From: Burkholderiales bacterium
GTDB taxonomy: Bacteria; Pseudomonadota; Gammaproteobacteria; Burkholderiales; SHXO01
Direction of reading: 5' to 3'
DNA: 64,000 nt
NCBI GenBank assembly: GCA_036787045.1
Contig: DAIQQA010000001.1
Location: forward strand, 40,167 to 104,166
Part shown: in pieces, positions 4,316 to 25,021 of the stretch
How positions within the stretch are numbered: the stretch's first letter is position 1
How the letters are laid out: each line of letters starts with the position of its first letter
Made by a program: the position numbers and the translations under genes
The notes under the pieces: generated by a model
Database searches by the model: none
What the model was told of the DNA's origin: nothing
The model's input: the letters and a program-made list of their open reading frames with translations, nothing else

Positions 4316-4334
4316 AGGCTTTCTCTGTTGGAAA

Positions 4335-5033
4335 TTATCGCCGCACGGTCGCTGCACTCTGCCCGAACAGGAACTTCCTCGCCTCGTCGTCGACCACCGG
4401 CTGGCTGCTGATCGCTTTGCCCTTCTCGTAGGCGCGCTCAACCGCAGGGCGTGCTCGGATCGCCTCGAACCACCGTTTGAGGTTGGGGAAGTCGTCCAGG
4501 TCCTGGTTCTGCCGCTTGTGCGACACGGTCCAGGGATAGCAGGCCATGTCGGCTATGGAGTAGTCTCCGGCGACGAACGCGCGGTCTGCGAGCCGCTTGT
4601 CCAGCACCGCATACAAGCGCGATGTCTCCTTCACGTAGCGGTCGATCGCGTACTGGATCTTCTCGGGTGCGTAGTGCAGGAAGTGGTGCGTCTGTCCGGC
4701 CATCGGCCCGAGCCCGCCCATCTGCCAGAACAGCCACTGCATCACATCGACGCGCTGGCGCAGCTGCGCAGGGAGAAACCGCCCGGTCTTCTCACCCAGA
4801 TAGACCAGGATCGCGCCTGACTCGAACACGGACAGGGGCGGCCCGCCGTCGGCGGGAGCATGATCGACAATTGCCGGCATGCGGTTGTTGGGGGAGATCG
4901 TCAGGAAGTCCGGTTGGAACTGCTCGCCGCGCCCGATGTTCACCGGCTTGATGGTGTAGGGCAGCCCGGTCTCCTCGAGGAAGATGGTGATCTTGTGCCC
5001 GTTGGGTGTTGGCCAGTAGTAGAGGTCGATCAT
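4335..5033 (-). CDS. yfcG: Nu-class glutathione S-transferase / GSH-dependent disulfide reductase, YfcG-like
   Basis: It aligns by eye along its full length to E. coli YfcG (MIDLYYWPTPNGHKITIFLEE..., ISPNNRMPAIVDHAPADGG, FESGAILVYLGEKTG, WLFWQMGGLGPM). Confidence 0.85.
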   Translation of the reverse strand: MIDLYYWPTPNGHKITIFLEETGLPYTIKPVNIGRGEQFQPDFLTISPNNRMPAIVDHAPADGGPPLSVFESGAILVYLGEKTGRFLPAQLRQRVDVMQWLFWQMGGLGPMAGQTHHFLHYAPEKIQYAIDRYVKETSRLYAVLDKRLADRAFVAGDYSIADMACYPWTVSHKRQNQDLDDFPNLKRWFEAIRARPAVERAYEKGKAISSQPVVDDEARKFLFGQSAATVRR

Positions 5034-5042
5034 AGGTCGTAA

Positions 5043-5075
5043 GGCGTGAGGGGTGAGGGGTCAGGAGCAAGGGGA
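5043..5075. repeat. Solo microrepeat arm (GGTGAGGGG units)
   Basis: The sequence is ggcgtgaggggtgaggggtcaggagcaagggga. It is related to the reverse complement of 31681-31718. Confidence 0.65.
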
Positions 5076-5113
5076 TGCGGTCGACGAGGCTTGCTCCGCG
5101 GCCCAATGCGTAC

Positions 5114-5791
5114 CTACGCGTCGTCGACGGCAATGATGCGCTGCGCGACGACGCCCAGGTCGGGCCCGACGATGTCGGGCGGGTCGAAGAGCGGGTCGAG
5201 GACCATGCCGGGACGGGCGATGAACGCCGCTCTGCATCCCGCCCGCATCGCGCCCGCCACGTCCCAGGAGTGTGCTGCGACGAGGCGCACGTCTGCGGGC
5301 GCTACGCCGAAGCTGTCGGCGGCGTGCCGGTAGACCTCGGCCGCCGGCTTGAGGCGGTGCACGGCGTCCACGGACAGCATCTTGTCCAGGTGAGGGGCGA
5401 TGCCGGAGTTGGTCAGCTGGGCCTCCGCGACTGCCGGTGGCGAGTTCGTCAGGGCAGCGAGACGGAATTCCGCCGCCTTCAGCCGCTGGATCGCCGGCAG
5501 CACATCGGGGTGAGGCGGGAGCGTGCGCATGCCGCCCAGTATCGCCCGCGCATCGGCGTCGGACAAGACCACGCCGCGCCGGGCCGCCACCATCTCCAGC
5601 GCCGCACGGCCCACTTTGCCGAAGTCGGAATAGGGTCCGGTCACCACGGTGAGCAGCGCGCTCTGCAGCACCTGCCCGAACCACGGGTACAGCACCTCGC
5701 CGTCGCCAAACACCCGCTCGAACTGCGGCTGCAATGCCCGCAGGTCGAGCAGGGTTTCGTTGACGTCGAACACGATCACTCGCTTGCGCAT
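5114..5791 (-). CDS. HAD-superfamily hydrolase, haloacid dehalogenase type II-like
   Basis: HAD motif I is VFDVNETLLD, followed by LTNS and a later AAHSWDV block. ATG 5791 is preceded by GGAGG. The ORF-track extension to 6025 was rejected. Confidence 0.85.
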   Translation of the reverse strand: MRKRVIVFDVNETLLDLRALQPQFERVFGDGEVLYPWFGQVLQSALLTVVTGPYSDFGKVGRAALEMVAARRGVVLSDADARAILGGMRTLPPHPDVLPAIQRLKAAEFRLAALTNSPPAVAEAQLTNSGIAPHLDKMLSVDAVHRLKPAAEVYRHAADSFGVAPADVRLVAAHSWDVAGAMRAGCRAAFIARPGMVLDPLFDPPDIVGPDLGVVAQRIIAVDDA

Positions 5792-5849
5792 CCGGCCTCC
5801 TTTCCTGTCCCCTGGATCGGGGTCCAGGGCAGGCTCCGATGAGGTTGAG

Positions 5850-6893
5850 TCAGGGAATGATCCGCTCGGCACGGAACCCGGCCAGCAGGCGCAGAAACAT
5901 TTCCTCGGTATCGACGGATTCGCAGAAGCCCGCCCGGCGCGCCTTGCCCATGTCGGAGACAATGTCATAGTCGGAGCCGAACACGAAATCGCCGAAGCCC
6001 CAGGCGGCGATCTGCTCGTAGGCATAGGGCGCGAGGCCGTGCCTCGCCACGATCCGGTCCCACACCGGACCCTTGTCCGCCATGAAGCGGGTAAGGCTGA
6101 TCTGGCGCGGCGGCGCCAGCTCCATGTCGAAGAAGCGCGCGAAGCGGGGCCACAGGTTTTCCCAGCGGATCAGGTCGCCGTTGGTAATGTTGAAGGCCTG
6201 GTTTGCACAGTTCGGCACGGTGGCCATCCAGACCAGAGCCTTCGCCAGCAGCGCCGAGTCGGTGCACTGATACAGCGAACGGTAAGCGCCGGGCTTGCCC
6301 GGAAAGCTCAGCGGCAGCCCCAGTTCCTTCGAGATCGCAGCGTAGACGGCGATCACAGTCGACAGGTTCATCGGGTTGCCCACCGCGAAGCCGCAGATCG
6401 CGTGCGGTCGCGAGGCGGACCACGTCCAGCGCTTGCCCTTATGGCGCGCCTCCAGGAAATCCTGCTGCGAGTAGTACATGTTGGGCGGCATGTGCCGCGG
6501 GTCGGTCTCTTTGGCCGGCGTCTTGAACGGCCCCAGATGGCTTCCGTACCACTTGGTGCCCTCGACCAGATGAACGTGCTGCAGGTCTGGCGACGCGGCC
6601 TCCAGGGCATCCAGCAGGTTCACCAGCATCCCGGTATTCACCGCCACCAGTTCCTGCTGGTCCGGTCGCTCCAGGTAGGCGGCGTAGAACGCGTGAGTGA
6701 TGTCCCGGAGCGCGCCCAGCTTGTTCCTGCAGTCGGACGGATCGGTCAGGTCGGCCGCAACGTGAAGATAGTCGCCCGGCACGTCGGGCTTGCGCCGCGA
6801 CACGGCGACGACATCCCAGTCACCCCGCTCGAGCAGATGCATGAGGAGATAGCGGCCCACTATCCCAGTGGCGCCAGTGACGAGTGCTCGCAT
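5850..6893 (-). CDS. NAD(P)-dependent SDR-family oxidoreductase (progesterone-5beta-reductase/PRISE-like extended SDR)
   Basis: The protein starts MRALVTGATGIVGRYL (Rossmann GxxGxxG), is about 347 aa and has an extended SDR layout. The upstream part of the track ORF lies in repeat DNA. Confidence 0.8.
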   Translation of the reverse strand: MRALVTGATGIVGRYLLMHLLERGDWDVVAVSRRKPDVPGDYLHVAADLTDPSDCRNKLGALRDITHAFYAAYLERPDQQELVAVNTGMLVNLLDALEAASPDLQHVHLVEGTKWYGSHLGPFKTPAKETDPRHMPPNMYYSQQDFLEARHKGKRWTWSASRPHAICGFAVGNPMNLSTVIAVYAAISKELGLPLSFPGKPGAYRSLYQCTDSALLAKALVWMATVPNCANQAFNITNGDLIRWENLWPRFARFFDMELAPPRQISLTRFMADKGPVWDRIVARHGLAPYAYEQIAAWGFGDFVFGSDYDIVSDMGKARRAGFCESVDTEEMFLRLLAGFRAERIIP

Positions 6894-6908
6894 TCGGCGA
6901 TGTAAAGC

Positions 6909-6956
6909 GGTGAAGGGTGAGGGCGTGAAGGGCGAAGGGGGAAGGGGGAAGGGTAA
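6909..6956. repeat. Purine-rich microrepeat arm (GTGAAGGG/GGCGAAGGGGG units), inverted relative to 7071-7189
   Basis: The sequence is ggtgaagggtgagggcgtgaagggcgaagggggaagggggaagggtaa. Its reverse complement begins TTACCCTTC, like the arms at 7071 and 7118. Confidence 0.8.
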
Positions 6957-7070
6957 TCCAGCGACGCTGATTGCGCCAGCCTGGCGGGGACTGGGGTGCA
7001 GCGCTACCCGCGATAGAACCAGGTCCTGGTCTCCAGTCGCACGCTGGGCACTACCCTTTGCTCCCACGCG

Positions 7071-7103
7071 TTACCCCTTCAGGCCTTCACCCCCCTTCCC
7101 TCG
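7071..7103. repeat. Pyrimidine-rich microrepeat arm (TTACCCCTTCAGGCCTTCACC...)
   Basis: Read directly from the sequence. It is complementary in pattern to 6909-6956. Confidence 0.7.
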
Positions 7104-7120
7104 TCGGCCTTCCTTAGTTA

Positions 7121-7189
7121 CCCTTCACGCCTTCACCCTTCACGCCTTCACCCTTCACGCCTTCACCCTTCACGCCTTCACCCTTCACC
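7121..7189. repeat. Tandem repeat, 15-bp unit CCCTTCACGCCTTCA x 4.6 copies, ending 9 nt before the gor start codon
   Basis: There are perfect copies at 7121-7135, 7136-7150, 7151-7165 and 7166-7180, and a partial copy at 7181-7189. Confidence 0.95.
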
Positions 7190-7198
7190 AGCTTCGCG

Positions 7199-8572
7199 AT
7201 GACCAAACACCTCGACCTACTCACCATCGGCGGCGGCAGCGGCGGCGTGGCCGTCTCCAACCGAGCCGGCTCGTACGGCGCTAGGTGCCTGTTGATCGAG
7301 AGGGGGCGCCTCGGCGGCACCTGTGTGAACGTCGGTTGCGTACCCAAGAAGGTGATGTGGAACGGGGCCCAGATCGCGGGTGCACTCGAGGATGCGGCCG
7401 ACTACGGCTTTCGCGTCGGGGCGCACGAGTTCGACTGGGCGACGCTGAAGCGCAACCGTGACGAGCATGTGCGCGACCTCAACAAGCACTACGCACGCTA
7501 CCTGGCGAGCAACAAGGTCGAGGTCGTCGCCGGCGCTGCCCGCTTCGTCGGCCCGAAAACTGTCGAGGTCGGCGGCGAGCGCTATAGTGCCAACCACGTG
7601 GTCGTCGCCACCGGCGGGCACCCAATCGTCCCGGACGTCCCCGGCGCGCGCTACGGCATCACTTCGGACGGCTTCTTCGAGCTGGAACGCTCGCCGCGCA
7701 AGGTGGCCATCGTGGGCGCCGGATACATCGCCGCGGAGCTGGCGGGCGTGCTGCACGCGTTGGGCAGCGAGGTGACAATCGTCCTGCGCCGGGAACGCTT
7801 GCTCGGCACCTTCGACCCCCTGCTGCGCGAGACGCTCATGGAGCAGATGCGCGGCGACGGCATCGAGCTCGTCACCAGCACGCCGATCATCGGCCTGGAG
7901 AAGGACCATCACGGCCATCTGACGCTGTTGTGCGGCAGCGGTACGCGCCTGGGCGGATTCGACACCGTCATTTGGGCAATCGGCCGTGCGCCGTCCACTC
8001 GCGACCTCGATCTGCCCGCCACCGGACTGGCACCGGACGAACTGGGCTTCGTGAGCACCGACGAATACCAGCAGACTGCCGTGCCGGGTATTTATGCAAT
8101 CGGCGACGTAACCGGACGGGTGGCGCTAACGCCCGTAGCAATCGCCGCGGGACGGCGACTGGCGGACCGCCTCTTCGGCGGCATGCCGGACTGCAGGCTG
8201 TCCTACGACGACATCCCGACGGTGATCTTCAGCCACCCTCCGATCGGCACGGTAGGGCTTACCGAGCCTGAGGCCGCCGAGCGCTTCGGCGCGGATTCGC
8301 TGAAGGTCTACCAGGCCCGGTTCACGCCCATGTACCACGCCTTCACTACGCGCAAGGTGGCGACGGCCATCAAGCTCGTGGTTGCAGGCCCCGAAGAAAG
8401 GGTGATCGGCTGCCACATTATCGGCCCGGGCGCGGACGAGATGCTCCAGGGTTTCGCAGTCGCGGTAAAGATGAGAGCGACCAAGCGCGACTTCGACGAT
8501 ACGGTGGCGATCCATCCGACGGTCGCCGAGGAACTGGTCACCATGCGCACCGCTCGGCCGGCGGCGGTGTAA
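7199..8572 (+). CDS. gor: Glutathione-disulfide reductase
   Basis: [16 protein letters not shown]..., the redox-active site [13 protein letters not shown], and the C-terminal HPT.AEE dimer-interface motif. The length of 457 aa fits. Confidence 0.95.
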
Positions 8573-13536: not shown

Positions 13537-13665
13537 TTGTAGAGCTAGCCTCGAGCCTCGCGCCCGATCTGTATCCGTTTTGCATAAATCTTGCTTCCCT
13601 GGTCCACCGTTTGAGCGCCCGACAGGGCATTCGTGGACCGTACCACTGTGACAGGAGGAAACGCC

Positions 13666-14037
13666 ATGAAGGGGTTGATGGGGCTGATCGGTGCAGCGCT
13701 GTTGATGTTCGTGTCCGTCGCCGCGTCGGCGCAGAGTCTGGAGGTGGCCGATGCGAAGCTCGGCAAGGGCGTACAGGACCGTGAGATCGTCGACGAGACC
13801 GCCACTTTCGCGGTCAACGAGAAAGCCTATCTGTGGATGCGCGTGACCGGCGGCCCGGGCGACATCAACGTGAACTGGAGCATCGGTGACCATACCGATA
13901 CTGTTCCGCTGAACATCGGCGGGAGCTCGTGGCGGACCTGGTCCAACAAGACGCTGTGGCAGGCGGGCGACTGGAAGGTGACGGTCACCGGCAGCGATGG
14001 ACAGGTGCTCAAGGAGATCACTTTCCAGGTGCAGTAG
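13666..14037 (+). CDS. Secreted small protein, DUF2914-like
   Basis: RBS AGGAGG precedes ATG 13666 and there is a signal peptide (MKGLMGLIGAALLMFVSVAASAQS). The pattern V.DRE.V...F......YLW..V.....I...W......RTWS.K....G.W.V.V matches DUF2914 as I recall it. Confidence 0.6.
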   Translation: MKGLMGLIGAALLMFVSVAASAQSLEVADAKLGKGVQDREIVDETATFAVNEKAYLWMRVTGGPGDINVNWSIGDHTDTVPLNIGGSSWRTWSNKTLWQAGDWKVTVTGSDGQVLKEITFQVQ

Positions 14038-14100
14038 CGTACGCAGCCGGCCGACTCGGGGGCGCAGGAGACTGCGCCCTTTTTCTTTTCCCGGCGTGCG

Positions 14101-14586
14101 ATGATTGCGAGCATGACTCGACTGCTCCTGGTTTTTCTCGCCGCAGTGGTCTGCACGCCGGCCCGCGCCCAGTCCATCGTGGCACTTTGGGACCCCGCGT
14201 ACGTCGCAGTGCGCCCGGGCGCGAGTGTGCAGATCATGGTCATCGCCGACATCCGGCCCGGCTACGTGGTAGTCGCTCACCAGGCGGCAGACGCGCAGCT
14301 GGCGCCACTGACATTGCGCTTTCCGGCGACGCGCGGGGTGGCCGTGGGCGCCCCACGCTACCCGGCGGCGCAGGATGCGAGGGTCGATGCCGATCGGCGC
14401 AGGGTCCCAACCTATGCAGGCACCCTGCGGATCGCTGTGCCGGTCACCGTCTCGAAGCAGACGCCACCCGGAGAATTGACCCTGCAAGGTGAGCTGCGCT
14501 ACCAGGCGTGCGTCGAACTGCGCTGCACCGCGAGCCGGACCTTGCCGGTCAGGCTCACCCTCGACGTCAAGCCCGTCGAGGACTAG
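14101..14586 (+). CDS. Secreted protein resembling the N-terminal (DsbD-alpha/DsbC-type) domain of thiol:disulfide interchange protein DsbD
   Basis: Signal peptide ...VCTPARAQS. The pattern Y.G...I.VPV......G...L.G.LRYQAC....C.....L.V.L.L is typical of DsbD N-terminal domain proteins. An alternative start is at 14113. Confidence 0.55.
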   Translation: MIASMTRLLLVFLAAVVCTPARAQSIVALWDPAYVAVRPGASVQIMVIADIRPGYVVVAHQAADAQLAPLTLRFPATRGVAVGAPRYPAAQDARVDADRRRVPTYAGTLRIAVPVTVSKQTPPGELTLQGELRYQACVELRCTASRTLPVRLTLDVKPVED

Positions 14587-14627
14587 TCGACTGTAACAAC
14601 GCAATGCGGAGCACACGCCCTCTCTCC

Positions 14628-14662
14628 CTTGCGGGAGAGGGTTGGAGTGGGGTACTACTGAA
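14628..14662. repeat. REP-like hairpin CCCTCTCTCCC-TTGC-GGGAGAGGG followed by TTGGAGTGGGG
   Basis: The stem-loop was read directly. Related copies lie at 31564, 31640 and 54332. Confidence 0.8.
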
Positions 14663-14851
14663 TCGGCTGCTAGAGTCCACTGGCTCGCCCGTGCATCCTC
14701 CTCCTGTCTTCACCCAGCCCAGACGCAGCGACGCCGACCGGCAACAGCAGGCGCACCCCGCGTGGCTGGACCCTGCTGCCCGGCCATGCCCGCGCGGAGA
14801 AGGTATACTCTTCGCTCCGCACACCACCCCGACCAACCAAGGACCGATTGC

Positions 14852-15406
14852 ATGCGCACCGAGGTACACGTACACGGCACCGTCCCGCTGCGCTCGGGTG
14901 TCACCCTGTCGCAGCTCGAGGCGGCGATGCAGCCCTGGCTGGACTATCTGGACGTCGAGGGCATCGACGAGCTGAAGAGCGTGCACCGGGACGAGCCGGG
15001 CATGGTGTTCGACCCACGCCGGCGCCTGCTGGAGATCTGCTGGACCGGCGATGTGGGGCGCAACTTCCGCAAAGTCATCGAGGACGCCCTGCAGGCCCTG
15101 TGCCGGTATACCGATCAGGCTGCGGAAGTACAGCTGAGCTACTACCACGAGGACGGCCGGGACGAGATCAGCATCGTATTCGTCGGCCCGAGCTCCGAGT
15201 CTATCCACGAGGCGCAGCGGCGGCGCATGGTAGAGGACATGTCCAACCTGTTGTCGCGTCACTTCGGGCAGCAGGAAGTGTCGGAGGTCGTGAATCACAT
15301 CAACGAGCTGTTCGCGCGCAACTGGAGTCAGCGTGGCGCGAGCGGCGAGATCGAGCTGTCCACCGAGCCGATCACCGTGCCCAAGGGCCGGAAGCATCTG
15401 CACTGA
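14852..15406 (+). CDS. Hypothetical cytoplasmic protein (184 aa)
   Basis: Third-position GC is strong from ATG 14852 (MRTEVHVHGTVPL...). I recognise no motifs. The upstream part of the track ORF lies in REP DNA. Confidence 0.6.
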   Translation: MRTEVHVHGTVPLRSGVTLSQLEAAMQPWLDYLDVEGIDELKSVHRDEPGMVFDPRRRLLEICWTGDVGRNFRKVIEDALQALCRYTDQAAEVQLSYYHEDGRDEISIVFVGPSSESIHEAQRRRMVEDMSNLLSRHFGQQEVSEVVNHINELFARNWSQRGASGEIELSTEPITVPKGRKHLH

Positions 15407-15581: not shown

Positions 15582-17051
15582 TCACAACGTCTTCAGATAC
15601 TCGATCAGCGCATTTTTCTGTCCTGCGCTTAGCGCAGTGCCGAATGCGTGGCCCTCACTGCTGCCAGCCCGGTCGCGCGTATCGTGCCGGGTGCCGATGC
15701 GCTGTGCCTCGGGTCCCTGAACTACGAAGCCCACGTTCGCCGGGTCGTGCAGATCGTAGCCGCGCCAGAACACCTTGGGCCGCTGCTCGGGTGGCTGCAG
15801 CAGATCGCGCAGCGTGGGCACCGACCCGTTGTGCAGGTAGGGCGCCCGCAGCCAGATCCCGTCCAAGAACGGCGGGTTGTAACCGTCGAGCGGCGCCTCC
15901 ACCAGACCCTTGCGCTCGATACCGAAGCTGCTCACCACTTTGTTGGCGGCGATGGCGTTGTCCGCGTTCCACGTGCCGATGCGCTCGGCGTCGGTCTTGA
16001 CCGCCGCCAGCGGCATGCGCTTGCCGGTCCGTTCGCTCGCATGACAGCTTGCACAATTGGCCTCGAACACCGGCTTGCCGGCCGCCGCGAGGGCCTGATC
16101 GATCGGGAACGGATACGGCGGGGGCTCCTTGGCGCGCAGGTAGTCCTGCAGCCACTTGACTTCCTCCAGGAACTCGCTGTTACGCTTGGGCGGCGCACCG
16201 AGCAGCCCGAGGGCCGAGTCGATGATGACCGAATAGGAATCGTGGCTGTCGCCGGCCCAGTTCATCGTCGTGCCCTCGCCATCGTACTTCTTGAGATTCC
16301 AGATCGCGGGGATGTCGGTGGGACCGAAGCTGTCGTCCATCGGCAGCTCGATCATGAAGTACTTGGTCAGGTTCATCGCGTCGTCGCGGCCGCGACCCCA
16401 GTCGGGGAAGTCCTCCCGGTAGATCCAGGCGAACTGCTGCTCGCGCTCGAGCAGGCGCTTTTTCGTGATCGGAATCAGGACGAAGCGATAGATCATGCTG
16501 TCGACGAACCCCAGATCGTAGACCAGGGAGATCTCGCGCATGATGTTGTCGGCGTCGAAGCGCGGATCCTTGGCGCAGTCCACCAGGAAGCGGAAGAACG
16601 CCACCAGGTTCAGCGTGTGGCCGTTGCCGGCGTTGACGAAAGTCGGGTTCTCATTGAGAGACTTGCGGTACGTCGCAGTGTGGCAGGCTGCGCAGTTATT
16701 TGCGACACGGGCGAAGCCGACGACCTTCTTGCTGAACCCTACCGGCAACTCCTGCCCCTGCTCCCAGGGTGCGCCCAGGGAAGCGTAGCCGCCCGGCCCA
16801 GGCAGCTTCTCCGGGAACAGGCGCGGCAGCACGACGAAGATCCAGTACGGAATGCCGGCATCGCGCTCGGCGCCGATCGAGCCGTACCTGAAGCGCATCT
16901 CCGGGTCGCTCGTGATCCAGTCCGGTTGCGGCTCCTCGCGGAAGAACTTGTACCAGGTGAAGATGGCGCCCGCTGCGGCGAGCACGGCGAGCAGCACGAT
17001 CGCGCCGATCAGCTTGCGCTTCCAACTACGCTTTGCGGTAATCGCTGCCAT
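15582..17051 (-). CDS. Membrane-anchored dihaem c-type cytochrome, CCP/MauG-like C-terminal half (paralogue 2)
   Basis: RBS GAGGAG is 5 nt upstream of the ATG, with an N-terminal TM anchor (LIGAIVLLAVLAAAGAIF). Two CxxCH motifs (CAACH, CASCH), WLRAPYLHNGSVPTLRDLL after the second haem motif, and C-terminus GHAFGTALSAGQKNALIEYLKTL. Confidence 0.85.
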   Translation of the reverse strand: MAAITAKRSWKRKLIGAIVLLAVLAAAGAIFTWYKFFREEPQPDWITSDPEMRFRYGSIGAERDAGIPYWIFVVLPRLFPEKLPGPGGYASLGAPWEQGQELPVGFSKKVVGFARVANNCAACHTATYRKSLNENPTFVNAGNGHTLNLVAFFRFLVDCAKDPRFDADNIMREISLVYDLGFVDSMIYRFVLIPITKKRLLEREQQFAWIYREDFPDWGRGRDDAMNLTKYFMIELPMDDSFGPTDIPAIWNLKKYDGEGTTMNWAGDSHDSYSVIIDSALGLLGAPPKRNSEFLEEVKWLQDYLRAKEPPPYPFPIDQALAAAGKPVFEANCASCHASERTGKRMPLAAVKTDAERIGTWNADNAIAANKVVSSFGIERKGLVEAPLDGYNPPFLDGIWLRAPYLHNGSVPTLRDLLQPPEQRPKVFWRGYDLHDPANVGFVVQGPEAQRIGTRHDTRDRAGSSEGHAFGTALSAGQKNALIEYLKTL

Positions 17052-17077
17052 ACCGTCTCCTCAGGTGTTGCCGCGGA

Positions 17078-18586
17078 TCAGAAGGTCTTCATATGCTCCA
17101 CCAGCGCGTCCTTGTCCGCCGCCGGTAGCGCCGTCCCGTAAGGGCGGCCCTCGTGCCCGCGGTTCGAGTTGCCGGGCACCGCAGTGTCGAACAGGAAATG
17201 CATGCGCCGGCCTTCCGAGGGGACATCCGACACGAAGCCCACGCGCTTCTGGTCGTACACGTCGTAGCCCCGGTAGAACGCTTTCGGCCGTTGACTGGCC
17301 GGTTCGAGCAGATCGCGCAGAGTGGGCACGGATCCGTTGTGCAGGTAAGGCGCGCGCAGCCAGACGCCATCCAGTGGCATGTTGGCGTAGCCGAAGGTCT
17401 TGCGGAAGTGCTTGAACCGGTGCTCCTCGTACCCGGTGTAGAGCTGCGCCTGGTTGGCTGCAAGCTCATAGGTGTACGAATCGAGACGGCCCCGGTCGGT
17501 GCCGATCTGCTCGATCGCCGTGACCTTCCCAACCCGATCGCCGCCGAAGTCCCGGCCCGTGGCGCCATGACAGCCGCTGCAATACTCGGCATAGATCTGC
17601 GCGCCCCGCCGCGCCTTTGCTTCGTCCACCGGGAAAGGATAAGCGGGCGGCGCCAGGTCGAGCAGCCAGTCCTCGATGCGATCCAGCGCGGCGTGATCGA
17701 TCGTCGGTGGTGTGGTACCCGCGCCGAAGGCAGCGCTCAGGTTGCGCTCCTCGACCTTGACGTTGTTGCCGTCCCAGTGCAGCTGCATATGCGCGTCCTT
17801 GCGCGGCCGCTGCAGCCAGATCGACGGGAAATCGCTCGGGCCCTTGAGCTCGTGCTCCGGGATCTGATCCATCGGGAAGTTGAAGATGGCCTTGGCGAAG
17901 TTGAAGGTATCCACCCGGCCCGGTCCCCAGGGCGCTTCCCGCCCGGCGAAAGAGAACCGCGCGTCCAGCATGCGGATGCGGTCCTGCATCAGAAACACCG
18001 CGAGCGGGTAGACGATGTAGCGGTCGATCAGGTCGAGCTCGCCGCCCGCGCGCTCGACCTCGGCGATCACCCGCTTGGGCGTGAACTTGCTGTCCTGCGC
18101 GCAGGCGAAGAAGAAGTTCTGGAAGCTCATCACGTCGAACAGGTTTGCCGGCATCCCCAGCAACAACCGGGGCTCGCTCTCCGGCGTCTCCCGCACGGTG
18201 CTCGTGTGACATACCGAGCAGTTCAGGAACACGCGATCCAGGCCGAGCACACGCCGTTTCGATACACCTACAGGCAGGTCCTTGTCCGCCTCGTACAGCA
18301 GCCCCAGCGACCGGTACCCCTCCCCCGGCAGCTTGTCTGCGCACAGGCCGGGGAGCGCCTGCCAGATCCAGTAGGGAAATCCGGATTCGCGCTCGCCGCC
18401 GAGCGACCCATACTTGAAATGCTCCGCGATGTCGGCGTACGTCACCGGCCGGTCGGTGCCGAAGCGGTTCGCCAGATACACGACCGCGGCCACGCTGATC
18501 AGCGCCAGCACCACCAGAATGCGCGCGACCCATCTCACCAACCGTCGTCCAGGATGCGACTGCCTCGGTTCCACGTCGGTCTCCAT
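17078..18586 (-). CDS. Membrane-anchored dihaem c-type cytochrome, CCP/MauG-like C-terminal half (paralogue 1)
   Basis: N-terminal TM anchor (ILVVLALISVAAVVYL). Motifs are CSVCH and CSGCH, with WLRAPYLHNGSVPTLRDLL and C-terminus GHEGRPYGTALPAADKDALVEHMKTF. It aligns end to end with the 15582-17051 product. Confidence 0.85.
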   Translation of the reverse strand: METDVEPRQSHPGRRLVRWVARILVVLALISVAAVVYLANRFGTDRPVTYADIAEHFKYGSLGGERESGFPYWIWQALPGLCADKLPGEGYRSLGLLYEADKDLPVGVSKRRVLGLDRVFLNCSVCHTSTVRETPESEPRLLLGMPANLFDVMSFQNFFFACAQDSKFTPKRVIAEVERAGGELDLIDRYIVYPLAVFLMQDRIRMLDARFSFAGREAPWGPGRVDTFNFAKAIFNFPMDQIPEHELKGPSDFPSIWLQRPRKDAHMQLHWDGNNVKVEERNLSAAFGAGTTPPTIDHAALDRIEDWLLDLAPPAYPFPVDEAKARRGAQIYAEYCSGCHGATGRDFGGDRVGKVTAIEQIGTDRGRLDSYTYELAANQAQLYTGYEEHRFKHFRKTFGYANMPLDGVWLRAPYLHNGSVPTLRDLLEPASQRPKAFYRGYDVYDQKRVGFVSDVPSEGRRMHFLFDTAVPGNSNRGHEGRPYGTALPAADKDALVEHMKTF

Positions 18587-18635
18587 TGGTTGTGCGCTGA
18601 CCCGATGTCATGCGCTCTGCGCGGTGCGGCCGAGG

Positions 18636-20897
18636 TCAGTCGACCGCTGCCGCGGTCGACTGCGCCAGGCAGGGTCGCAGGCTCTCGTAGCCGCCGGCCA
18701 GGTGCTTCCCCAGTTCGGGAGGCTGCCCGGATTCCGCTTCCAGCAGCGCTTCCACCTGCTGCACCAGTGCGGTGAGGTCGCTGCTGCGTTGCCAGTCGTC
18801 GCTGCCGAGCCCGTGTGGACGCAGAGCCAGCACCGGGGGCATCGGCGTTTTCGCGCGCTGCGCCGCGGGCACGCGCCACATGCTGAGACGCGCATAGATC
18901 CGGGGCGCGCAGTGCGCGATCTTTGCTTCGACCTCCTCGAGCGTGCTGCCGTCGAGGAAGTTCGGCGGAGTGAGTTCCCGCGTGCGGTGGCACGACGCAC
19001 AGTACGCGTAGAAGCGGTCCAGGCGCGCGACCGGTGCGCTGTGCGACTCGGCCGTCGCGCGCACCGCCTCGGTTTCGGCGGGCGGAAGGTTCCCAGCCTG
19101 CGTACAGCACCAGTCTCGCGCCGCGAACCCCAACGCTTCGAACAGAGCAGCCAGGCTGGGCGCGCGCCGGAACGGCTTCGCGGAGAACACGTCGCTGCGA
19201 CCGGCCACAGTGCTGCGATGGAGGTCCGCGACCGCAGCGGCCACAGGCCCGAACTCGTCTCGCAGGTTGGCGCGCACCTCTCCGCGCTCCCCGGACCAGG
19301 ACATGCTCAGCCGGGTGATCGCTTCGCCACGGTGGGTACGCGCACTCAGCCCGCGCCGGCCGAGCCGGAGATCGGCCCTGCCGCCGGAGGATCCTGCCGC
19401 GACGGTCCCGTCCAGGATCTGCAGCGCGGCAAGTGGTCCTGCGCCGGACAGGGTCATACCTTCGATCGAGCCACGCTCCACGCCGCCGGCATGCGCATAG
19501 AGCCGGCCGTGCAGGCTCAAGGGCTGGTCCTGCCCGCAACGGACGGTGAGCCTGATCCGGCCTGCTTCGACCGCCTTGCGTGCAAAGTCGCAGCGCGCAC
19601 GCACCTGGCGTACCGGTGCTCTGCGAGCGTGTGTGCTGAGATGCCGGTCGATCTCGCGCACGTCGCGCTCGCTGAAGAACTCGGACAAGCCGCGCACCAG
19701 CCGGTCGAGGTCGGCCGGGTTCGAATGCCGCCAGGTCTCCAGCGGCGCACGCGGGACCAGGGGATCGAAGGGCGCTGCCACGTCGACCGCCGAACCTGCG
19801 ACGCGCGCGACTCCCGTCTCCTCGCCCGCAAGCGGATTGCGGTTCGGGATGTCGGGATCTGGGATGAGCAGTCCCGCGGGCCAGAGCACCTTCCAACTCT
19901 GTGTCAGGCGCGTAAGATAGGCCAGCCGGTAGGCCTCGCTCGCGCGATCGAACTGCGCCGAATCGGTCAGGCGATACTGCAGAGCGAGCATGAAGGCAGC
20001 GGCGCGACATTCGGCTCCGGCACTATCGTCGGGTCCGCAGCCGCGCTGCCACAACAGTTGATAGGCGGCGAGCCGATTCGCCCGGTCGGTCGCGTTGTCC
20101 ACCGCGTAGGGCTCGTCGACCCCGCGCTGGACCGGCACGCCGTAGAGCTTGCTCCCATGCGCCGCCAGGCGTTCCTGCACGCGCGGGTTCGCGTTGGTCT
20201 CGTCCCATTGTTGGCGCGAGAAAATCGGCGCGTGGTTCTGATGGCAGGCGATGCACACGGTGCGGTTCGCATAGAGCACCCGAGGACGCGCCCCCGGGCG
20301 ATAGTCCTTCACGAGCTGGAACTCGAAGCGGGCGGCTGCTTCGTTGTAGCTGATCACCTCGAGCACGCCGGCGCTCTCCTGGTAGCCGATGTAGAGCCGG
20401 TCCTTCAGCAGCATGCCCGCGCCCCGTCCACGCGCCGGGACCTCGCCGTCCACGGCGATCACACCGCGCGGGAACTCGAAGAAGGCTGTTCCTGCGGCCG
20501 TGCGCTGCAAGGAACGCCCCAGAGGTATGAGCACGTGCTTGACTCCAGGTTTGCCTAGCGCGTCCCGCCCTGCATGCGCCGCCACCGCGTCAATCACGGC
20601 GGAGAACGGGAACGGGACGCGATAGTCGCCACCACGCGAGAACAAGTAGTCGAACAGCGAGCGCCCGACGGGAGGCAGATCGGTTCCGGGTGCGCTCGGG
20701 TCGACTGCCCATACCCCTTCCGTCCGATCGTCGGGGAACTGCGCAGCGTGAGCCGCAGCAAAGCCCTCCGCCAGGGTCACTGCAAACACACACAGCGCCA
20801 GCGCTGCCAATGTCCCATCCCGGGGCGGTGCTCGGTTTGGGTAGCCACGCACGGCTCCGCGGGTAGACCGGACCTCAGCCGGCCACCATCTGAACAC
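18636..20897 (-). CDS. Secreted 753-aa protein with two CxxCH haem-c motifs, otherwise unrecognisable
   Basis: Signal peptide LAALALCVFAVTLAEGFAAAHA-AQ. CIACH lies in the N-terminal third and CASCH near the C-terminus. Third-position GC is high. ATG 20897 overlaps the upstream gene by 23 nt, and an alternative GTG lies at 20852. Confidence 0.75.
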   Translation of the reverse strand: MFRWWPAEVRSTRGAVRGYPNRAPPRDGTLAALALCVFAVTLAEGFAAAHAAQFPDDRTEGVWAVDPSAPGTDLPPVGRSLFDYLFSRGGDYRVPFPFSAVIDAVAAHAGRDALGKPGVKHVLIPLGRSLQRTAAGTAFFEFPRGVIAVDGEVPARGRGAGMLLKDRLYIGYQESAGVLEVISYNEAAARFEFQLVKDYRPGARPRVLYANRTVCIACHQNHAPIFSRQQWDETNANPRVQERLAAHGSKLYGVPVQRGVDEPYAVDNATDRANRLAAYQLLWQRGCGPDDSAGAECRAAAFMLALQYRLTDSAQFDRASEAYRLAYLTRLTQSWKVLWPAGLLIPDPDIPNRNPLAGEETGVARVAGSAVDVAAPFDPLVPRAPLETWRHSNPADLDRLVRGLSEFFSERDVREIDRHLSTHARRAPVRQVRARCDFARKAVEAGRIRLTVRCGQDQPLSLHGRLYAHAGGVERGSIEGMTLSGAGPLAALQILDGTVAAGSSGGRADLRLGRRGLSARTHRGEAITRLSMSWSGERGEVRANLRDEFGPVAAAVADLHRSTVAGRSDVFSAKPFRRAPSLAALFEALGFAARDWCCTQAGNLPPAETEAVRATAESHSAPVARLDRFYAYCASCHRTRELTPPNFLDGSTLEEVEAKIAHCAPRIYARLSMWRVPAAQRAKTPMPPVLALRPHGLGSDDWQRSSDLTALVQQVEALLEAESGQPPELGKHLAGGYESLRPCLAQSTAAAVD

Positions 20898-21744
20898 GCT
20901 GCGTTCCGGGCCAGCAGTCCTCCGCTACGGCACCGGTGCTCTGGAACGCCTCGCCGTCGCGCTTCGCGATCTCCTCGTTGTAGAGCACGAAGTTCAAGAG
21001 GAACACTCGATCCGCATATGCACGGCCGAGATACAGCCCCGGCCGCACCATCCGGATCTCGTCGCGGATGCGCAGCCCGCGGCGGCCCGCGAGGAAGTCC
21101 GGGTTCTCGCGGTATCCCTCGACCTCGTCGCTGAACGCATAGTCGATGACGATCGACTCGCGCCGGCCATCGAGCAGGCTCTGTCCGCAGTAGAGCTTGG
21201 CGGGGAACAGCAGCCAGGCGTCGCGCCCGTTCACCGTGGTCTTCGGCAGCGAGCTGGGCGGGCCGTCGATCAGCGGGCCGAGGAGCGCCAGGTCCTCGAT
21301 CCGGTTGCGCAGGACGCGTTCGTCGCGATAGAAGACCTTACCTTTCCATAGGGTCTTCCCGACGATCTCGAGCTTGCGGCCTTTGAGGTTGACCACGAAG
21401 CCCTTGAGCCCGCCGACGATCTCGGCGAGGCGCCGATCGCCGCTCTCCCCTTTCGGGAAGAACAGGCCGCCATCGAACGCGCCGTCCGGGATCGGTCCGG
21501 CCGTGAGGCGCGCATAAATCTGGTCGATTTGCTCCTGATCGAGGACAGCGAGATTCTCCGGCGTGATCAGAGCGCGCTGTGCCGGGGTCAGCGGATGCTT
21601 ATGCTCCAGGCGCGCGAAGTCGGGCTTGCTGGCGTAATCCGCCCCGTACTCCATGAACGGAATGTCCGGCCCTTTCGGGCCGCAGCCGGTGATCGCCAGC
21701 GTCGCCGCCACTGCGGCATGGATGAACAATCTGCGCATCAGCAT
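20875..21744 (-). CDS. Lipoprotein of unknown function
   Basis: RBS GGAGGG precedes ATG 21744. The lipobox is MLMRRLFIHAAVAATLAITG-C. I recognise no catalytic motif. Confidence 0.75.
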   Translation of the reverse strand: MLMRRLFIHAAVAATLAITGCGPKGPDIPFMEYGADYASKPDFARLEHKHPLTPAQRALITPENLAVLDQEQIDQIYARLTAGPIPDGAFDGGLFFPKGESGDRRLAEIVGGLKGFVVNLKGRKLEIVGKTLWKGKVFYRDERVLRNRIEDLALLGPLIDGPPSSLPKTTVNGRDAWLLFPAKLYCGQSLLDGRRESIVIDYAFSDEVEGYRENPDFLAGRRGLRIRDEIRMVRPGLYLGRAYADRVFLLNFVLYNEEIAKRDGEAFQSTGAVAEDCWPGTQRVQMVAG

Positions 21745-21769
21745 CTGTCGTCCCTCCGCCTCTAGCCGA

Positions 21770-24277
21770 TCAAAGGGTGGCAAGGAACGCCGTGAGAGCG
21801 TTCTTGTCCTGTACCGACAGGTTCTCGCCGAAGCGATGACCTTTGTTCTCGATCAGGTCTGTACAGGAGCTGTAGGCCTCGACCAGCTTCGGCCGTTTGC
21901 GCAGCGTATCGATCAATGCAGCCGGGTTGGCGAGGACTTCTTCGGCGACCTGCGCGATCTCCCCGGCCAGCTCCGGCCCGCGCTTCTTCTCGAGTTGCTT
22001 GCGGTCGAGCTTCGCCAGCACGAGGTCGACGGCGAACTGCTTGTGCTGGAAGTTGCCCAGCGCACCCGCACTGGCCCCTGCCGGCACCGTCACTGTGAAG
22101 CCGAAGAGCTTGCGCTCGTCCTCTCCGTCCATCACCTTCGGTCCGAGATCGAGCACGATGTCGCGATCGAGCTTGGTGATCTTGGGGATGCGCTCCTGCG
22201 GATTCAGCAGCATCCGCATCGACTCCTTGTACAGCTTGAAACGCCCCTCCACAGTCGGGTCATATGCCCAGCAGGCCGGCTGCTGGTTGTCGGGCAGCAG
22301 GCGGTTCTCGCCGTCGACGTACACGGGACGATAGAACTCGTAAGGCCCCTTGCCGCCCCAGCCGCAGATCTCCGGACCCAGCGCATTGTTGTGCATGAAC
22401 GGTGCATGCGCCCACACGCTGAGCAGCGAGATGTTGCGATAGTAGCCGCGACCACCGTCCGAGGGTTCCCGGATCCCGGGAACCTGTGCGCGGGCCCGCA
22501 GGGTCTGCGAGCCGAACTCTTCCCAGACGTGGCCGCTCATGTGGTTGGAATGCAGCGAACGGCAGCGGAAAGTGTCGACCTCGGCCGCCGGCGTGGACTG
22601 ATCGTTGCCCATCCAGTCCTCACGCAAACCGGTCGTCGTGGACACCGCACGGAAGTCCCGATTGCGGAACGGCCCGGCCTTTTCCTCCGGAACGCTGGAA
22701 TGGCAGCGGGCGCATGTCTCGGCGAACACTTCCCTCCCGCGTGCGACCGCACCCGCACCGAACTCGCGCTCCAGATCTTCCACGAGATCGTCGTACTCGT
22801 AGCTGGCCGCGGGTTTCCTGGCCTTCAGCGCATTCGCGCGCGCGACGTGCAGATCGGTTGCGTCGTTCTCCTTGGACAGGAAGAACGCCAGGATGTCGGG
22901 CAGACGATCCTCGATCGCACGGAAGTTGGGGCAATCGCGCCGGCACTGCCCGATACCGAACGGCGTCTGGCCAAAGTTGCGCTGATTGGGATCGACCTGC
23001 CGCAGATCGGTCAGGTGATTCACCCAGCACGCCTCGGCGCAGGAGCCGATGTTGAAGTACACGCGTTGGATTGCGCCGAGCGCACCGATGCTGTCTTCAC
23101 CTCCTTTGAGGATGTGATGCACGGTCTCGGTCTGCTTGCTCTTGCGCCAGCACTTGGTGCTGCGGCCGGGCTCGCACCAGCACGTCTCGCCCTCGACACT
23201 GCTGGCATCGCACGAAGCGACCTTGCGCCAGGCGGTGACCTCCTCGCCTTCGAATACAGGCCGCTGGCTGATGTCGATCAGAGCGTTGATGGTGCCCGGA
23301 TTGTTGACCTGGTCGGTCGGCACTGCCGAGGTGTCGGAGGTGCCGGGGCGCGCATGCGCGAATATCTGCCACTCCGGGCTGTCGACCGGCATGCCCGACA
23401 CCATGATCTCGGAAATGCGCAGGTACTGGTTGCCGATCCCGCCCTTGATGTTGCTCCATTCGGGCCGGGCGGGGTCCTTCGGCGGGTTGAGCGGGTCGAA
23501 GGCAATATGGCAGGAGCCACACGACACGCCGATCAGGAACGGCGGCTCGATTGAGCCGTCGCCGATCCGGCTGGTGCGGCCGTCGGTGGTGGCATCATCG
23601 GACAGCCGGCGTCCGTAGCCGGCCCACGTGCCCACCTTGCCGTCGTTCAACGCCCGCCACTTCTGGGCATCGAAGCGGGGGTTGGGAAACTTGCGATAGC
23701 CGAGCGCTCCGGTCGACGTTCCGAACGCGAGATCGCAGGAGGACTGGCGCTGATCGCCGGGTCCATGCACATCGTTCTGCGCGATGGGCGCGTCCTGGAA
23801 GTCGCAGGCCGGATCGCGATATCCCTCCTTGCCTACGTGTGGCAGCAGCGCCTCGTCGCCGGCGCAGTAGTCGAAGCCGTAGGTTTCCTCCATGCTCCGC
23901 GCCGGGCATCCGGGCGAGCCTGGCGTGCAGCAGTCCGGATCGTTGATCAGGCCCCAGGTCTTGAAGCGCTGAGCACGCTCATCCGCGCGCAGGACCCTGT
24001 ACCAGTCGATCCACACGCCGAGGCGCTGCTGGAACACGTAGGTGTGGAACCGCGCGTTGCCTGCGGTGGCCTTGTACCAGATCTCGCGCCCGGCACGCTG
24101 TGAAGGCGTCAGGCCGCTTTCGCCTAGATAGAAGCCCGATGTCTGGGCCGCGCTGGTTGCCACCGGTGCATCGCGCGCCGGCGCCGATTCGTTGGCGCTG
24201 TCGCGGTCTGACGACAGCGCAACCGACAGGGCCGAAACCAGCACCAGCCCCAAGCTCACAAACACGCCTCGCTTCAT
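21770..24277 (-). CDS. Secreted Cys-rich 835-aa dihaem c-type cytochrome, CCP/MauG/RoxA-like
   Basis: Sec signal peptide (MKRGVFVSLGLVLVSALSVALS). CGSCH is encoded at 23507-23521 and CARCH at 22700-22714. SVWAHAPFMHNNALG follows haem 2, and the C-terminus NKGHRFGENLSVQDKNALTAFLATL matches the two smaller cytochromes. There are more than 20 additional Cys residues. Confidence 0.85.
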   Translation of the reverse strand: MKRGVFVSLGLVLVSALSVALSSDRDSANESAPARDAPVATSAAQTSGFYLGESGLTPSQRAGREIWYKATAGNARFHTYVFQQRLGVWIDWYRVLRADERAQRFKTWGLINDPDCCTPGSPGCPARSMEETYGFDYCAGDEALLPHVGKEGYRDPACDFQDAPIAQNDVHGPGDQRQSSCDLAFGTSTGALGYRKFPNPRFDAQKWRALNDGKVGTWAGYGRRLSDDATTDGRTSRIGDGSIEPPFLIGVSCGSCHIAFDPLNPPKDPARPEWSNIKGGIGNQYLRISEIMVSGMPVDSPEWQIFAHARPGTSDTSAVPTDQVNNPGTINALIDISQRPVFEGEEVTAWRKVASCDASSVEGETCWCEPGRSTKCWRKSKQTETVHHILKGGEDSIGALGAIQRVYFNIGSCAEACWVNHLTDLRQVDPNQRNFGQTPFGIGQCRRDCPNFRAIEDRLPDILAFFLSKENDATDLHVARANALKARKPAASYEYDDLVEDLEREFGAGAVARGREVFAETCARCHSSVPEEKAGPFRNRDFRAVSTTTGLREDWMGNDQSTPAAEVDTFRCRSLHSNHMSGHVWEEFGSQTLRARAQVPGIREPSDGGRGYYRNISLLSVWAHAPFMHNNALGPEICGWGGKGPYEFYRPVYVDGENRLLPDNQQPACWAYDPTVEGRFKLYKESMRMLLNPQERIPKITKLDRDIVLDLGPKVMDGEDERKLFGFTVTVPAGASAGALGNFQHKQFAVDLVLAKLDRKQLEKKRGPELAGEIAQVAEEVLANPAALIDTLRKRPKLVEAYSSCTDLIENKGHRFGENLSVQDKNALTAFLATL

Positions 24278-24410
24278 GGTCCCCCCGGATTGAATCCGGT
24301 TCTCGCGGGCACCGCCTGCACCGGTCTGGTGAACGCGGGTCGCGCGAGAACTCGACTTGCTGCGCTGCGTTTGTCGATCTGCCGCCTGTGCAACGTGGAG
24401 GCACGTCTAC

Positions 24411-24438
24411 TGTATAGCGCCTTCGCCCGTCCGCGCAA
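24411..24438 (-). promoter_or_regulatory. Candidate sigma70-type promoter for the cytochrome operon (-35 TTGCGC, 16 nt spacer, -10 TATACA on the minus strand)
   Basis: Read by eye in the 408-nt non-coding leader. The match to consensus is weak and the call is unsupported otherwise. Confidence 0.2.
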
Positions 24439-24684
24439 GGTGCCGGAAGGAATATGTCCTTGGTATGACGCGAGAAATGCCGCGGCGAAGGCGGACGATC
24501 GCGTGCAACCTCAGCGCTTCATCGGCAGCAGCGAGGCGGTGCACGCCGGGAGTCGGCTGCGCGATTGGGACTGGCGTTCGTACGGGAAGACGGCGCTCGG
24601 CGGATGCACGAGCGGATGCAGATCAGGATGCGAAAGATCGCCGCGGGCAGCGGCGATGCCAGCGCCCGTCAGTCGAGAGCGAAC

Positions 24685-24876
24685 TCAGTGTGCCGGTTTG
24701 ATGCTGACCGGCGCTTCGCCGGTGAGCGCCCGCAGGAGCTGGGTGAGACGGATCTCGCCGTCACGCGCCAGTCCGCTCACCTGCGGCTCGGATTTGGCCT
24801 GCGCACGCGCAGACGCCCGCCGGCCGGCGCCCTGCGCCGTGCGCCGCGTGCTCTGCGTTGCCTTACGCGATTTCAT
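24685..24876 (-). CDS. Small basic protein (63 aa), hypothetical
   Basis: A perfect AGGAGG lies 8 nt upstream of the ATG, and third-position GC is about 80 percent. The sequence is MKSRKATQSTRRTAQGAGRRASARAQAK... with a C-terminal amphipathic segment EIRLTQLLRALTGE. Confidence 0.5.
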   Translation of the reverse strand: MKSRKATQSTRRTAQGAGRRASARAQAKSEPQVSGLARDGEIRLTQLLRALTGEAPVSIKPAH

Positions 24877-25021
24877 GGGTTAATGCCTCCTGCATGCAAT
24901 AGCGGCATGCCGGGCAGCCGACTTTAGCCCGGAACCCGCCGCTCGCCCACGGCCGCGCCCCGGAGCGAGCCCCATGTTGTGTTCGTCCGTCCAGCCGTGA
25001 GGCGGCCGGCGGGCTTGCCGC

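Follow-up and report, generated by a model that had tools for sequence, protein, structure and literature searches.

A stretch of 64,000 nt from the genome of a Burkholderiales bacterium (assembly GCA_036787045.1, contig DAIQQA010000001.1, positions 40,167 to 104,166), here called the window, contains a five-gene operon that encodes four dihaem c-type proteins and a lipoprotein. The genes, named A to E in the order of transcription, make up a real and widely conserved operon of which no member has been characterised. Genes A, B and C form an invariant core, and D and E are a usual, but replaceable, accessory pair. It seems possible, if somewhat short of probable, that the operon provides an envelope pathway in which haem enzymes oxygenate a hydrophobic substrate or process its hydroperoxide. 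We favour this reading because the characterised relatives of these enzymes act on hydrophobic olefins, because the D-E pair resembles the oxylipin-forming pair PA2077/PA2078 of Pseudomonas aeruginosa, and because barrels are predicted in both B and C.

All five open reading frames (ORFs) that a first-pass annotation had described were found again, co-oriented on the minus strand and together spanning window positions 15582-24277. Gene A (21770-24277) encodes a cysteine-rich dihaem protein of 835 aa with a Sec-type signal peptide, and gene B (20875-21744) a lipoprotein of 289 aa when read from ATG or 302 aa from an upstream TTG. Genes D (17078-18586) and E (15582-17051) encode a RoxA-like dihaem enzyme of 502 aa and its paralogue of 489 aa. 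The gaps measure 25 nt between A and B, 49 nt between C and D and 26 nt between D and E. For gene C, two start codons are possible. With the GTG at 20897 the gene (18636-20897) encodes 753 aa and overlaps B by 23 nt, as had been reported. A public copy that is 100% identical is, however, called from the TTG at 20810, 29 codons later (18636-20810; 724 aa), and the overlap may really be a 64-nt gap. A signal-peptide-like hydrophobic stretch is kept in both versions. Ribosome-binding sites had been claimed for the gaps in general; Shine-Dalgarno-like purine-rich stretches indeed precede A, B and E, but those ahead of C and D are weak. The claim of exactly two CxxCH motifs in each of A, C, D and E is borne out, with none in B. 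These eight motifs are invariant across the family alignments of the four proteins, and by a rough estimate only about 0.01 such motifs would be expected by chance in this much protein.

A genome scan with B, using one genome per species, yielded 338 stretches that encode a relative of B, and the best 80 of these loci were analysed. Synteny is strongly conserved. Genes A, B and C are contiguous and co-oriented in 77 of the 80, the remaining three being cut by contig ends. D, or D and E, lie directly after C in 62 loci; a contig end cuts nine others, and in the last nine D-E does not follow. The flanking genes, on the other hand, differ completely between lineages, and when all ORFs of the 80 loci were clustered, nothing outside A to E occurred in more than 11 of them. 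The hosts are mostly uncultured Burkholderiales and Gammaproteobacteria from soil, groundwater and sludge, and include a Steroidobacter metagenome-assembled genome (MAG) and some Thiobacillaceae or Chromatiaceae. Cultured hosts are Piscinibacter (Ideonella) sakaiensis 201-F6, three Aromatoleum species, Azoarcus sp. L1K30 and Lysobacter cavernae. The five reading frames are closely packed in P. sakaiensis (NZ_CP182947.1, about 2.043-2.053 Mb), where A and B, B and C, and D and E are each separated by 9 nt and the listed reading frame of D overlaps C.

Among the five products, D and E alone pass the curated cut-offs of the two relevant family models, which are 26.7 bits for PF21419 (RoxA-like_Cyt-c) and 150 bits for NF040606 (CytoC_perox). 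D scores 61.9 and 183.6 bits, and E 62.8 and 158.2 bits, respectively. The structure of RoxA from Steroidobacter cummioxidans 35Y (4b2n) is matched by D alone with an E-value of 1e-10, and by a joint D/E profile with an E-value of 8.4e-21, in four collinear pieces that include RoxA residues 496-541 and 620-662. D and E share with RoxA two CxxCH haem motifs in the same order. These lie at 18206-18220 and 17567-17581 in D, and at 16680-16694 and 16041-16055 in E. The first-pass annotation had placed A, D and E in the broad CCP/MauG/RoxA superfamily. This assignment stands, with A homologous over its residues 508-835, and is narrowed to the RoxA/FadCcp branch, since none of the five proteins matches PF03150 (CCP_MauG) at an E-value of 1 or below. 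It had also described the operon as having no assignable function. D and E do carry an NCBI family name, that of a subfamily which is itself functionally uncharacterised, but searches of Pfam, NCBIfam, PDB and the literature, together with the defence models of PADLOC, which gave no match, place no gene in a characterised pathway. Full-text literature searches found nothing on this cluster, and all copies are labelled 'hypothetical protein', 'cytochrome c' or 'mono/diheme cytochrome c family protein' in the databases.

The alignment with RoxA also extends to functional positions. The block after the second haem motif reads APYLHNG in D (17333-17353) and E (15825-15845), and APFMHNN in A (22385-22405), so that the APY(L/M)HN(G/N) consensus proposed earlier describes D and E, but not A. 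In the wider form P-[YF]-x-H-N-[GN], it is present and invariant in all three, as is a C-terminal His. The PYLHNGSVP block of D and E falls on the MauG-type motif of RoxA, which shares the pattern P-Y-x-H-N-G-S-V-P, and both this motif and the C-terminal His are conserved in the D/E alignments. The common ending that had been noticed earlier (GH...DK.AL...TL) is likewise present in A, D and E, with its GH at 21827-21841, 17135-17158 and 15639-15653, respectively; RoxA and D/E share the tail G-H...L-x-E-Y-[IL]-K-T-L. The GH of D and E is aligned with the GGH of RoxA near residue 641, and His641 is presumably the distal ligand of the second haem of RoxA. The common C-terminal signature is thus the tail of the RoxA fold that bears the ligand. 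In a similar manner, RoxA-based models of PA2077 and PA2078 assign H611 and H603, some 20 residues before the C-terminus, as the second axial ligand to the C-terminal haem (PMC4496055).

D and E differ from RoxA in several respects. RoxA is secreted and is not accompanied by B and C. D and E fall short of its length by about 170 residues and seem to be anchored in the membrane by their N-termini. In each, a basic N-terminal stretch leads into a hydrophobic helix of some 23 residues (18464-18532 in D, 16944-17012 in E) without an obvious cleavage site, and this arrangement is read as a probable signal anchor. Furthermore, the predicted distal pocket of haem 1 is different. In D, the predicted pocket comprises LHWDG (17768-17782) and SAAFG (17723-17737). 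The Trp of HWDG is set on RoxA W302 and the Phe of SAAFG on F317. His-Trp-Asp-Gly occurs in all 15 aligned sequences of D, so that the W302 position is Trp in every one, and the Phe occurs in 14, the other having Met. In E, MNWAG (16251-16265) and DSALG (16206-16220) take the place of these elements: Asn occupies the RoxA 301 position in 16 of 16 sequences, Leu replaces Phe in 15 of 16, and the Trp is variable. RoxA has its haem-bound O2 between F301 and F317, and the O2 stays bound only when both residues are present (PMC6797691). The hydrophobic pocket made by Phe at both positions is found in neither D nor E. The two proteins were nevertheless matched to each other at 100% in a profile comparison with hhalign, and they are clear, but differentiated, paralogues.

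Protein A is more distant. It stays below both cut-offs (11.6 bits for PF21419, 24 bits for NF040606), and a PDB profile search with it gave nothing significant. Residues 508-835, however, are related to the C-terminal half of E (hhalign 97.8%, E-value 6.7e-13) and, with 94%, to that of D. A permissive alignment of A is collinear over the full length and sets haem 1 on haem 1, with low confidence. The haem motifs lie at 23507-23521 and 22700-22714. A is thus a highly elaborated member of the superfamily of D and E and a new, very divergent branch of it, far more divergent from RoxA than these are, and carrying large Cys-rich insertions. There are 22 cysteines, of which 18 are not involved in haem attachment; 17 of these 18 are invariant across 41 orthologues, which suggests that A is a disulfide-rich exported protein. 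The non-haem cysteines, among them a cluster C-x9-C-x-C-x7-C around residues 356-376, would correspond to about nine disulfides; an additional metal site is another possibility. Orthologues of A are 57-76% identical across the 80 loci.

These features of A, and its relation to RoxA, could be taken to indicate an attack on polymers outside the cell or in the periplasm, with rubber-like polyisoprenoids or lignin- or humic-type material as substrates, A as a secreted oxidase and the other proteins handling the products. RoxA is a secreted, polymer-cleaving enzyme (PMC6797691), and RoxA and RoxB cleave polyisoprene (PMC6797691, PMC10837239). Sec export and the invariant cysteines of A would suit a disulfide-stabilised exo-enzyme; the soil, groundwater and sludge habitats of the hosts, which include the Steroidobacter MAG, would also fit, as would the DyP-type peroxidase-like gene of some variant loci that is described below. 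Yet D and E appear to be bound to the membrane, no uptake or beta-oxidation genes are linked to the operon, and F301 is not conserved. D and E as rubber oxygenases proper are ruled out by this absence of F301 and by their scores against the RoxA, RoxB and RoxC equivalog models (NF050033, NF050034 and NF051462), which amount to 45-75 bits where the cut-offs are 900-1000 bits. We regard an attack on polymers as highly improbable.

Protein C had been counted with the other three, but it does not belong to their superfamily, and hhalign finds no relation of C to A, D, E or B. B is also unrelated to A and D in this comparison. C has a Sec-type signal peptide and matches no Pfam or NCBIfam family above cut-off and nothing in the PDB by sequence or profile. 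Its two haems seem to be of different kinds. Conservation analysis leaves two conserved His residues, both of them proximal haem ligands, and one conserved Met, in the invariant KTPMPP (18834-18851; P656-M657-P658-P659), 49 residues past the His of the second haem motif, CASCH (18987-19001; C604xxC607H608). At the level of motifs, the combination of CxxCH, a Met about 50 residues further on and a Pro-rich surrounding is that of a His/Met cytochrome c domain. Haem 2 would thus be a class-I-type electron-transfer haem, and a weak match to PF13442 (E-value 8e-4, below cut-off) is located in C as well. For haem 1 (CIACH, 20241-20255) there is no conserved second His or Met, which suggests that its sixth position is open or has an unusual ligand, for which one Lys and several Tyr residues that are conserved are candidates.

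The AlphaFold model of C is confident (pLDDT 84.6, pTM 0.86), and no solved structure in the PDB resembles it at a Foldseek E-value of 0.001 or below. The best matches are weak ones to LolB/LolA, lipocalins and nitrophorins. The search gave no aligned residues, and we attribute these matches to a strand-rich segment at about residues 400-517, which is modelled as a beta-barrel. Between this barrel and the C-terminal cytochrome domain lies an invariant Trp-Cys-Cys (19104-19112, residues 567-569), the vicinal cysteines of which could form a vicinal disulfide or a redox-active site.

The lipoprotein B, with its lipobox LAITG-C21 at 21682-21699, is the most conserved protein of the module, with a mean column identity of 70%. 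Its relatives number more than 3575 cluster representatives, of which the best 120 are 64-94% identical and are all called 'hypothetical'. When a profile of B was compared with 1.84 billion representative proteins, 536 clusters were found at an E-value of 0.001 or below. B has no sequence or profile match in Pfam, NCBIfam or the PDB, and the longer homologues from the representative search contain no Pfam domains that would reveal a fusion partner. The AlphaFold model (pLDDT 78, pTM 0.77) consists of N-terminal helices followed by an antiparallel barrel. Foldseek places an uncharacterised structural-genomics protein (4mve_A) first with an E-value of 9e-4, and then a long run of CRABP-II, FABP and lipocalin structures at about 1e-2. 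With these modest scores, we read the predicted fold as a calycin-type (lipocalin/FABP-like) barrel, the classic fold for the binding of greasy small molecules. B differs from the known calycin lipid binders by the extra helical region and the lipid anchor, and has no sequence similarity to them.

Many aromatic residues of B are invariant (W132, W176, Y138, Y184, Y210, Y237 and Y242), and so are two cysteines outside the lipobox (C185 and C276). These residues, and the extreme conservation of B on both faces of its strands, would be explained if B (or C) were a substrate rather than a helper. MauG acts on preMADH and MbnH on its adjacent partner MbnP, and the dihaem enzymes of the operon might by analogy oxidise Trp, Tyr or Cys residues of their partner protein to a protein-derived cofactor. 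In the wider superfamily, dihaem enzymes with a neighbouring partner protein as substrate are indeed known (PMC6405878), and the invariant vicinal cysteines of C could be further targets. However, A, D and E are on the RoxA/FadCcp branch, the known substrates of which are small or polymeric hydrocarbons and not proteins. The MbnH model TIGR04039 gives 10-16 bits against a cut-off of 363, and no homologue of MbnP, MauA or MauB was found. Likewise, the MADH, MbnP or phosphatase partners of MauG, MbnH and BthA are missing here, and the neighbouring genes are unrelated. Three enzymes together with C for a single substrate protein would be without precedent. Cofactor maturation is thus a quite improbable role.

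To return to the oxidation of a hydrophobic substrate in the envelope, the closest known parallels are RoxA and the tandem gene pair of P. aeruginosa. PA2077, a 10S-dioxygenase, and PA2078, a 7,10-diol synthase that converts the hydroperoxide, form oxylipins from oleate, and these periplasmic tandem paralogues are assigned to a 'FadCcp' subfamily (PMC4496055). As in D and E, the genes are adjacent and encode paralogous RoxA-like dihaem proteins with the motif PY(F/L)HNGSVP, an axial His near the C-terminus and a C-terminal Leu. Their products also differ from one another at the positions of RoxA W302 and F317, which implies two different reactions on one lipid. Tandem paralogues with differentiated active-site residues, the mark of the FadCcp type, are thus found in D-E as well. 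In contrast to D and E, the P. aeruginosa proteins are longer (634 and 624 aa) and Sec-exported, and their two-gene operon has no counterparts of A, B and C.

Gene order, haem motifs, family memberships, fold classes, conservation and synteny have been shown by the comparisons above. For the place of each protein in the cell, the haem ligands, the kind of substrate and the sequence of reactions, we infer the following scheme. The substrate would probably be olefinic; unsaturated fatty acids and isoprenoid-type lipids are examples. A RoxA-type enzyme would oxygenate this compound, and further haem enzymes would convert the resulting hydroperoxide. In each of A, D and E, the N-terminal haem would be catalytic, its sixth position being open, and the C-terminal one bis-His-ligated, with the second His supplied by the C-terminal GH signature. 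A may be soluble in the periplasm or secreted, while D and E would be tethered to the inner membrane with their active sites at its outer face. D and E would be paralogues specialised for two different steps, as their pockets are predicted to be of a His-Trp...Phe and an Asn-Trp...Leu type, and the invariant His in the pocket of D would suit peroxide chemistry. B, as a lipid-anchored barrel, might bind, present, shuttle or isomerise the greasy substrate or product. C would have a barrel similar to LolB and lipocalins, an open-site haem of another type than that of A, D and E, and, coupled to both, the His/Met cytochrome c domain, which in turn may exchange electrons with periplasmic carriers or the respiratory chain. 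The barrels in B and C fit the handling of a water-insoluble molecule. The jasmonate pathway of plants offers a parallel, in which a dioxygenase is followed by a haem enzyme acting on the hydroperoxide and then by a lipocalin-fold cyclase. This allene oxide cyclase is a calycin-class barrel enzyme whose substrate, derived from a fatty-acid hydroperoxide, comes straight from haem enzymes. The functional guesses of the first-pass annotation, an envelope oxidative pathway with lipid or polymer oxidation among the examples, remain the best available.

Several points weigh against an oxygenation of this kind. The clustering of the 80 loci revealed no consistently linked substrate, lipid-metabolism or transport gene. 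F301, which stabilises bound O2 in RoxA (PMC6797691), is His in D and Asn in E; therefore, a simple RoxA-type dioxygenase chemistry is doubtful. The likeness of D-E to PA2077/PA2078 was judged from the features described in PMC4496055. The conservation of B is extreme, being 70% across orders and affecting both faces of the strands, and exceeds what a passive carrier would need. Finally, the Foldseek support for the barrels of B and C together is weak, with E-values from 1e-3 to 1e-1 and TM scores of 0.2-0.6; for B and the calycins the E-values are 1e-3 to 1e-2, and allene oxide cyclase is not among the top 50 matches.

A more specific form of the favoured reading would have the A-B-C(-D-E) module constitute a new pathway for making or destroying oxidised lipids, oxylipin- or apocarotenoid-like, in the envelope of soil and water Proteobacteria, with three RoxA-type enzymes that oxygenate or convert hydroperoxides, the dihaem protein C and a catalytic B. 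This is speculative and on balance doubtful. If true, bacteria would possess another oxylipin system, far more widely distributed than the one known only from P. aeruginosa.

The variant loci give a further indication. Among the nine loci in which D-E does not follow C, one (L065) has D-E upstream and divergent, and another (L060) has unrelated genes downstream of C. The other seven (L013, L018, L019, L036, L045, L053 and L058) have in common, as a minimum, the final gene of a set that replaces D-E. Where examined, for instance at L058:13019-17075 and L019:13000-17322, this set encodes a 432-aa membrane protein, a DyP-type peroxidase-like protein and a 413-aa protein, the first and last of which belong to no family. 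The DyP-like protein has 500-585 aa and a GFRDGISQP motif, scores below the cut-off of TIGR01413 (E-value 8.6e-22) and lies just above that of PF20628. A gene downstream of it had by eye appeared 'catalase-like', a label that was dropped after Pfam, NCBIfam and PDB searches gave nothing. The DyP-containing set could be an alternative accessory set for the A-B-C core in these seven related MAG loci. That it occupies the place usually taken by D-E suggests a chemistry of peroxides or hydroperoxides.

Such chemistry would equally be at work in a membrane-associated peroxidase chain that uses respiratory electrons to reduce periplasmic H2O2 or organic (lipid) hydroperoxides, C being the point of electron entry and A, D and E the peroxidatic components. 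In addition to the DyP-like gene, this agrees with the name of the NCBIfam family of D and E ('di-heme-cytochrome C peroxidase'), with the class-I-like His/Met domain of C, and with the invariant His beside the inter-haem Trp of D, a possible acid-base catalyst that is absent from RoxA (PMC6797691). The proteins bCCP, MauG, MbnH and BthA, which are covered by PF03150, do resemble A, D and E: they are dihaem, periplasmic and Ccm-matured, and possess an inter-haem Trp and a His-containing 'MauG motif'. The module nevertheless falls outside PF03150, and A, D and E lack the conserved Met that ligates the high-potential His/Met haem of canonical bCCPs; no Met or Tyr ligand is conserved at the second haem, where a C-terminal His would act instead. 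Moreover, five genes including a barrel lipoprotein would be elaborate for detoxification, and no OxyR- or PerR-type regulator is linked to them. A role as a peroxidase chain is therefore unlikely in our estimation.

With eight c-type haems in envelope proteins, the operon might also be thought of as a respiratory or lithotrophic unit, in which the four cytochromes merely relay electrons from the oxidation of metals, sulfur or nitrogen compounds. A SulP transporter and a rhodanese adjoin the operon in this window, and some of the hosts are Thiobacillaceae or Chromatiaceae. These sulfur-related neighbours are, however, not conserved elsewhere, and the hosts are mostly ordinary heterotrophs. The one open catalytic haem of RoxA-like proteins is unsuited to relay, no TsdA or Sox model comes over threshold, and matches to MtrC-type models are far below the cut-offs. 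Mere electron relay thus appears the most improbable of the roles discussed.

RoxA-type chemistry, in which a c-type haem uses O2 to cleave or oxygenate unactivated C=C bonds, is rare. To our knowledge, only a handful of enzymes of this type have been characterised, namely the rubber oxygenases and one oxylipin pair of P. aeruginosa. The present module appears to bring three of them together in a fixed operon with a dihaem protein that matches no solved structure and a near-invariant barrel lipoprotein. It is widespread, as relatives of B in 338 stretches and thousands of metagenomic relatives of B indicate, and occurs in cultured and tractable hosts. Once the substrate is identified, a new oxidative pathway of the envelope would be defined and three large 'hypothetical protein' families would gain functions, and new biocatalysts for the oxidation of olefins or lipids might follow.

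Expression of the operon presumably starts from the 744-nt intergenic region upstream of A (24278-25021, minus strand). A promoter scan recognised neither a sigma-70 consensus upstream of A nor a clear terminator after E. A comparison of upstream DNA from 71 loci brought up only GC-rich background k-mers as common motifs, and an Rfam search of the whole window matched no RNA family. The intergenic region contains a 63-aa ORF (24685-24876, minus strand) for a very basic product, MKSRKATQSTRRTAQGAGRR..., with AGGAGG as a strong ribosome-binding site. Nothing comparable precedes A in the other loci, and the ORF was dropped as a member of the module. In agreement with the first-pass annotation, which had seen no regulator, substrate or Ccm gene in the operon, none is evident within about 5 kb. 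In P. sakaiensis 201-F6, the gene next upstream of A, in the same orientation, encodes a hybrid histidine kinase of 1010 aa with PAS/GAF and receiver domains (L067:4144-7176); this is a candidate regulator, in P. sakaiensis only.

The remaining neighbours in the window are, on one side, genes for a KefC-type antiporter, a DUF2914 protein (13633-14037), a weakly DsbD_N-like periplasmic protein (14101-14586) and a DUF6806 protein (14642-15406). The last three are small genes on the plus strand (13633-15406) that are convergent with the operon and have no evident link to the module. On the other side, a topoisomerase IV gene is found in addition to those for SulP and rhodanese.

Elsewhere, the surroundings are of a different nature. 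In L002 (ENA contig_8674, 4310-7309 and 15856-20861), lipid-related and cell-death-type genes flank the module, an arrangement that is not conserved in other loci. They encode a patatin phospholipase, a PMT_2 glycosyltransferase and an SRPBCC protein on one side, and a caspase-like peptidase C14, a DUF7379 protein, an LCAT-like acyltransferase and a CHAT domain protein on the other. In a Burkholderiales MAG chromosome (L001:16105-20870; OZ257154.1) and about six other loci, a haem-uptake cluster is located just downstream of E in convergent orientation. In the former it comprises hemP, ChuX/HemS, a periplasmic binding protein, a FecCD permease, an ABC ATPase and TonB, and the ABC ATPase gene recurs in seven loci. 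This linkage is probably lineage-specific, yet suggestive beside a system with eight haems.

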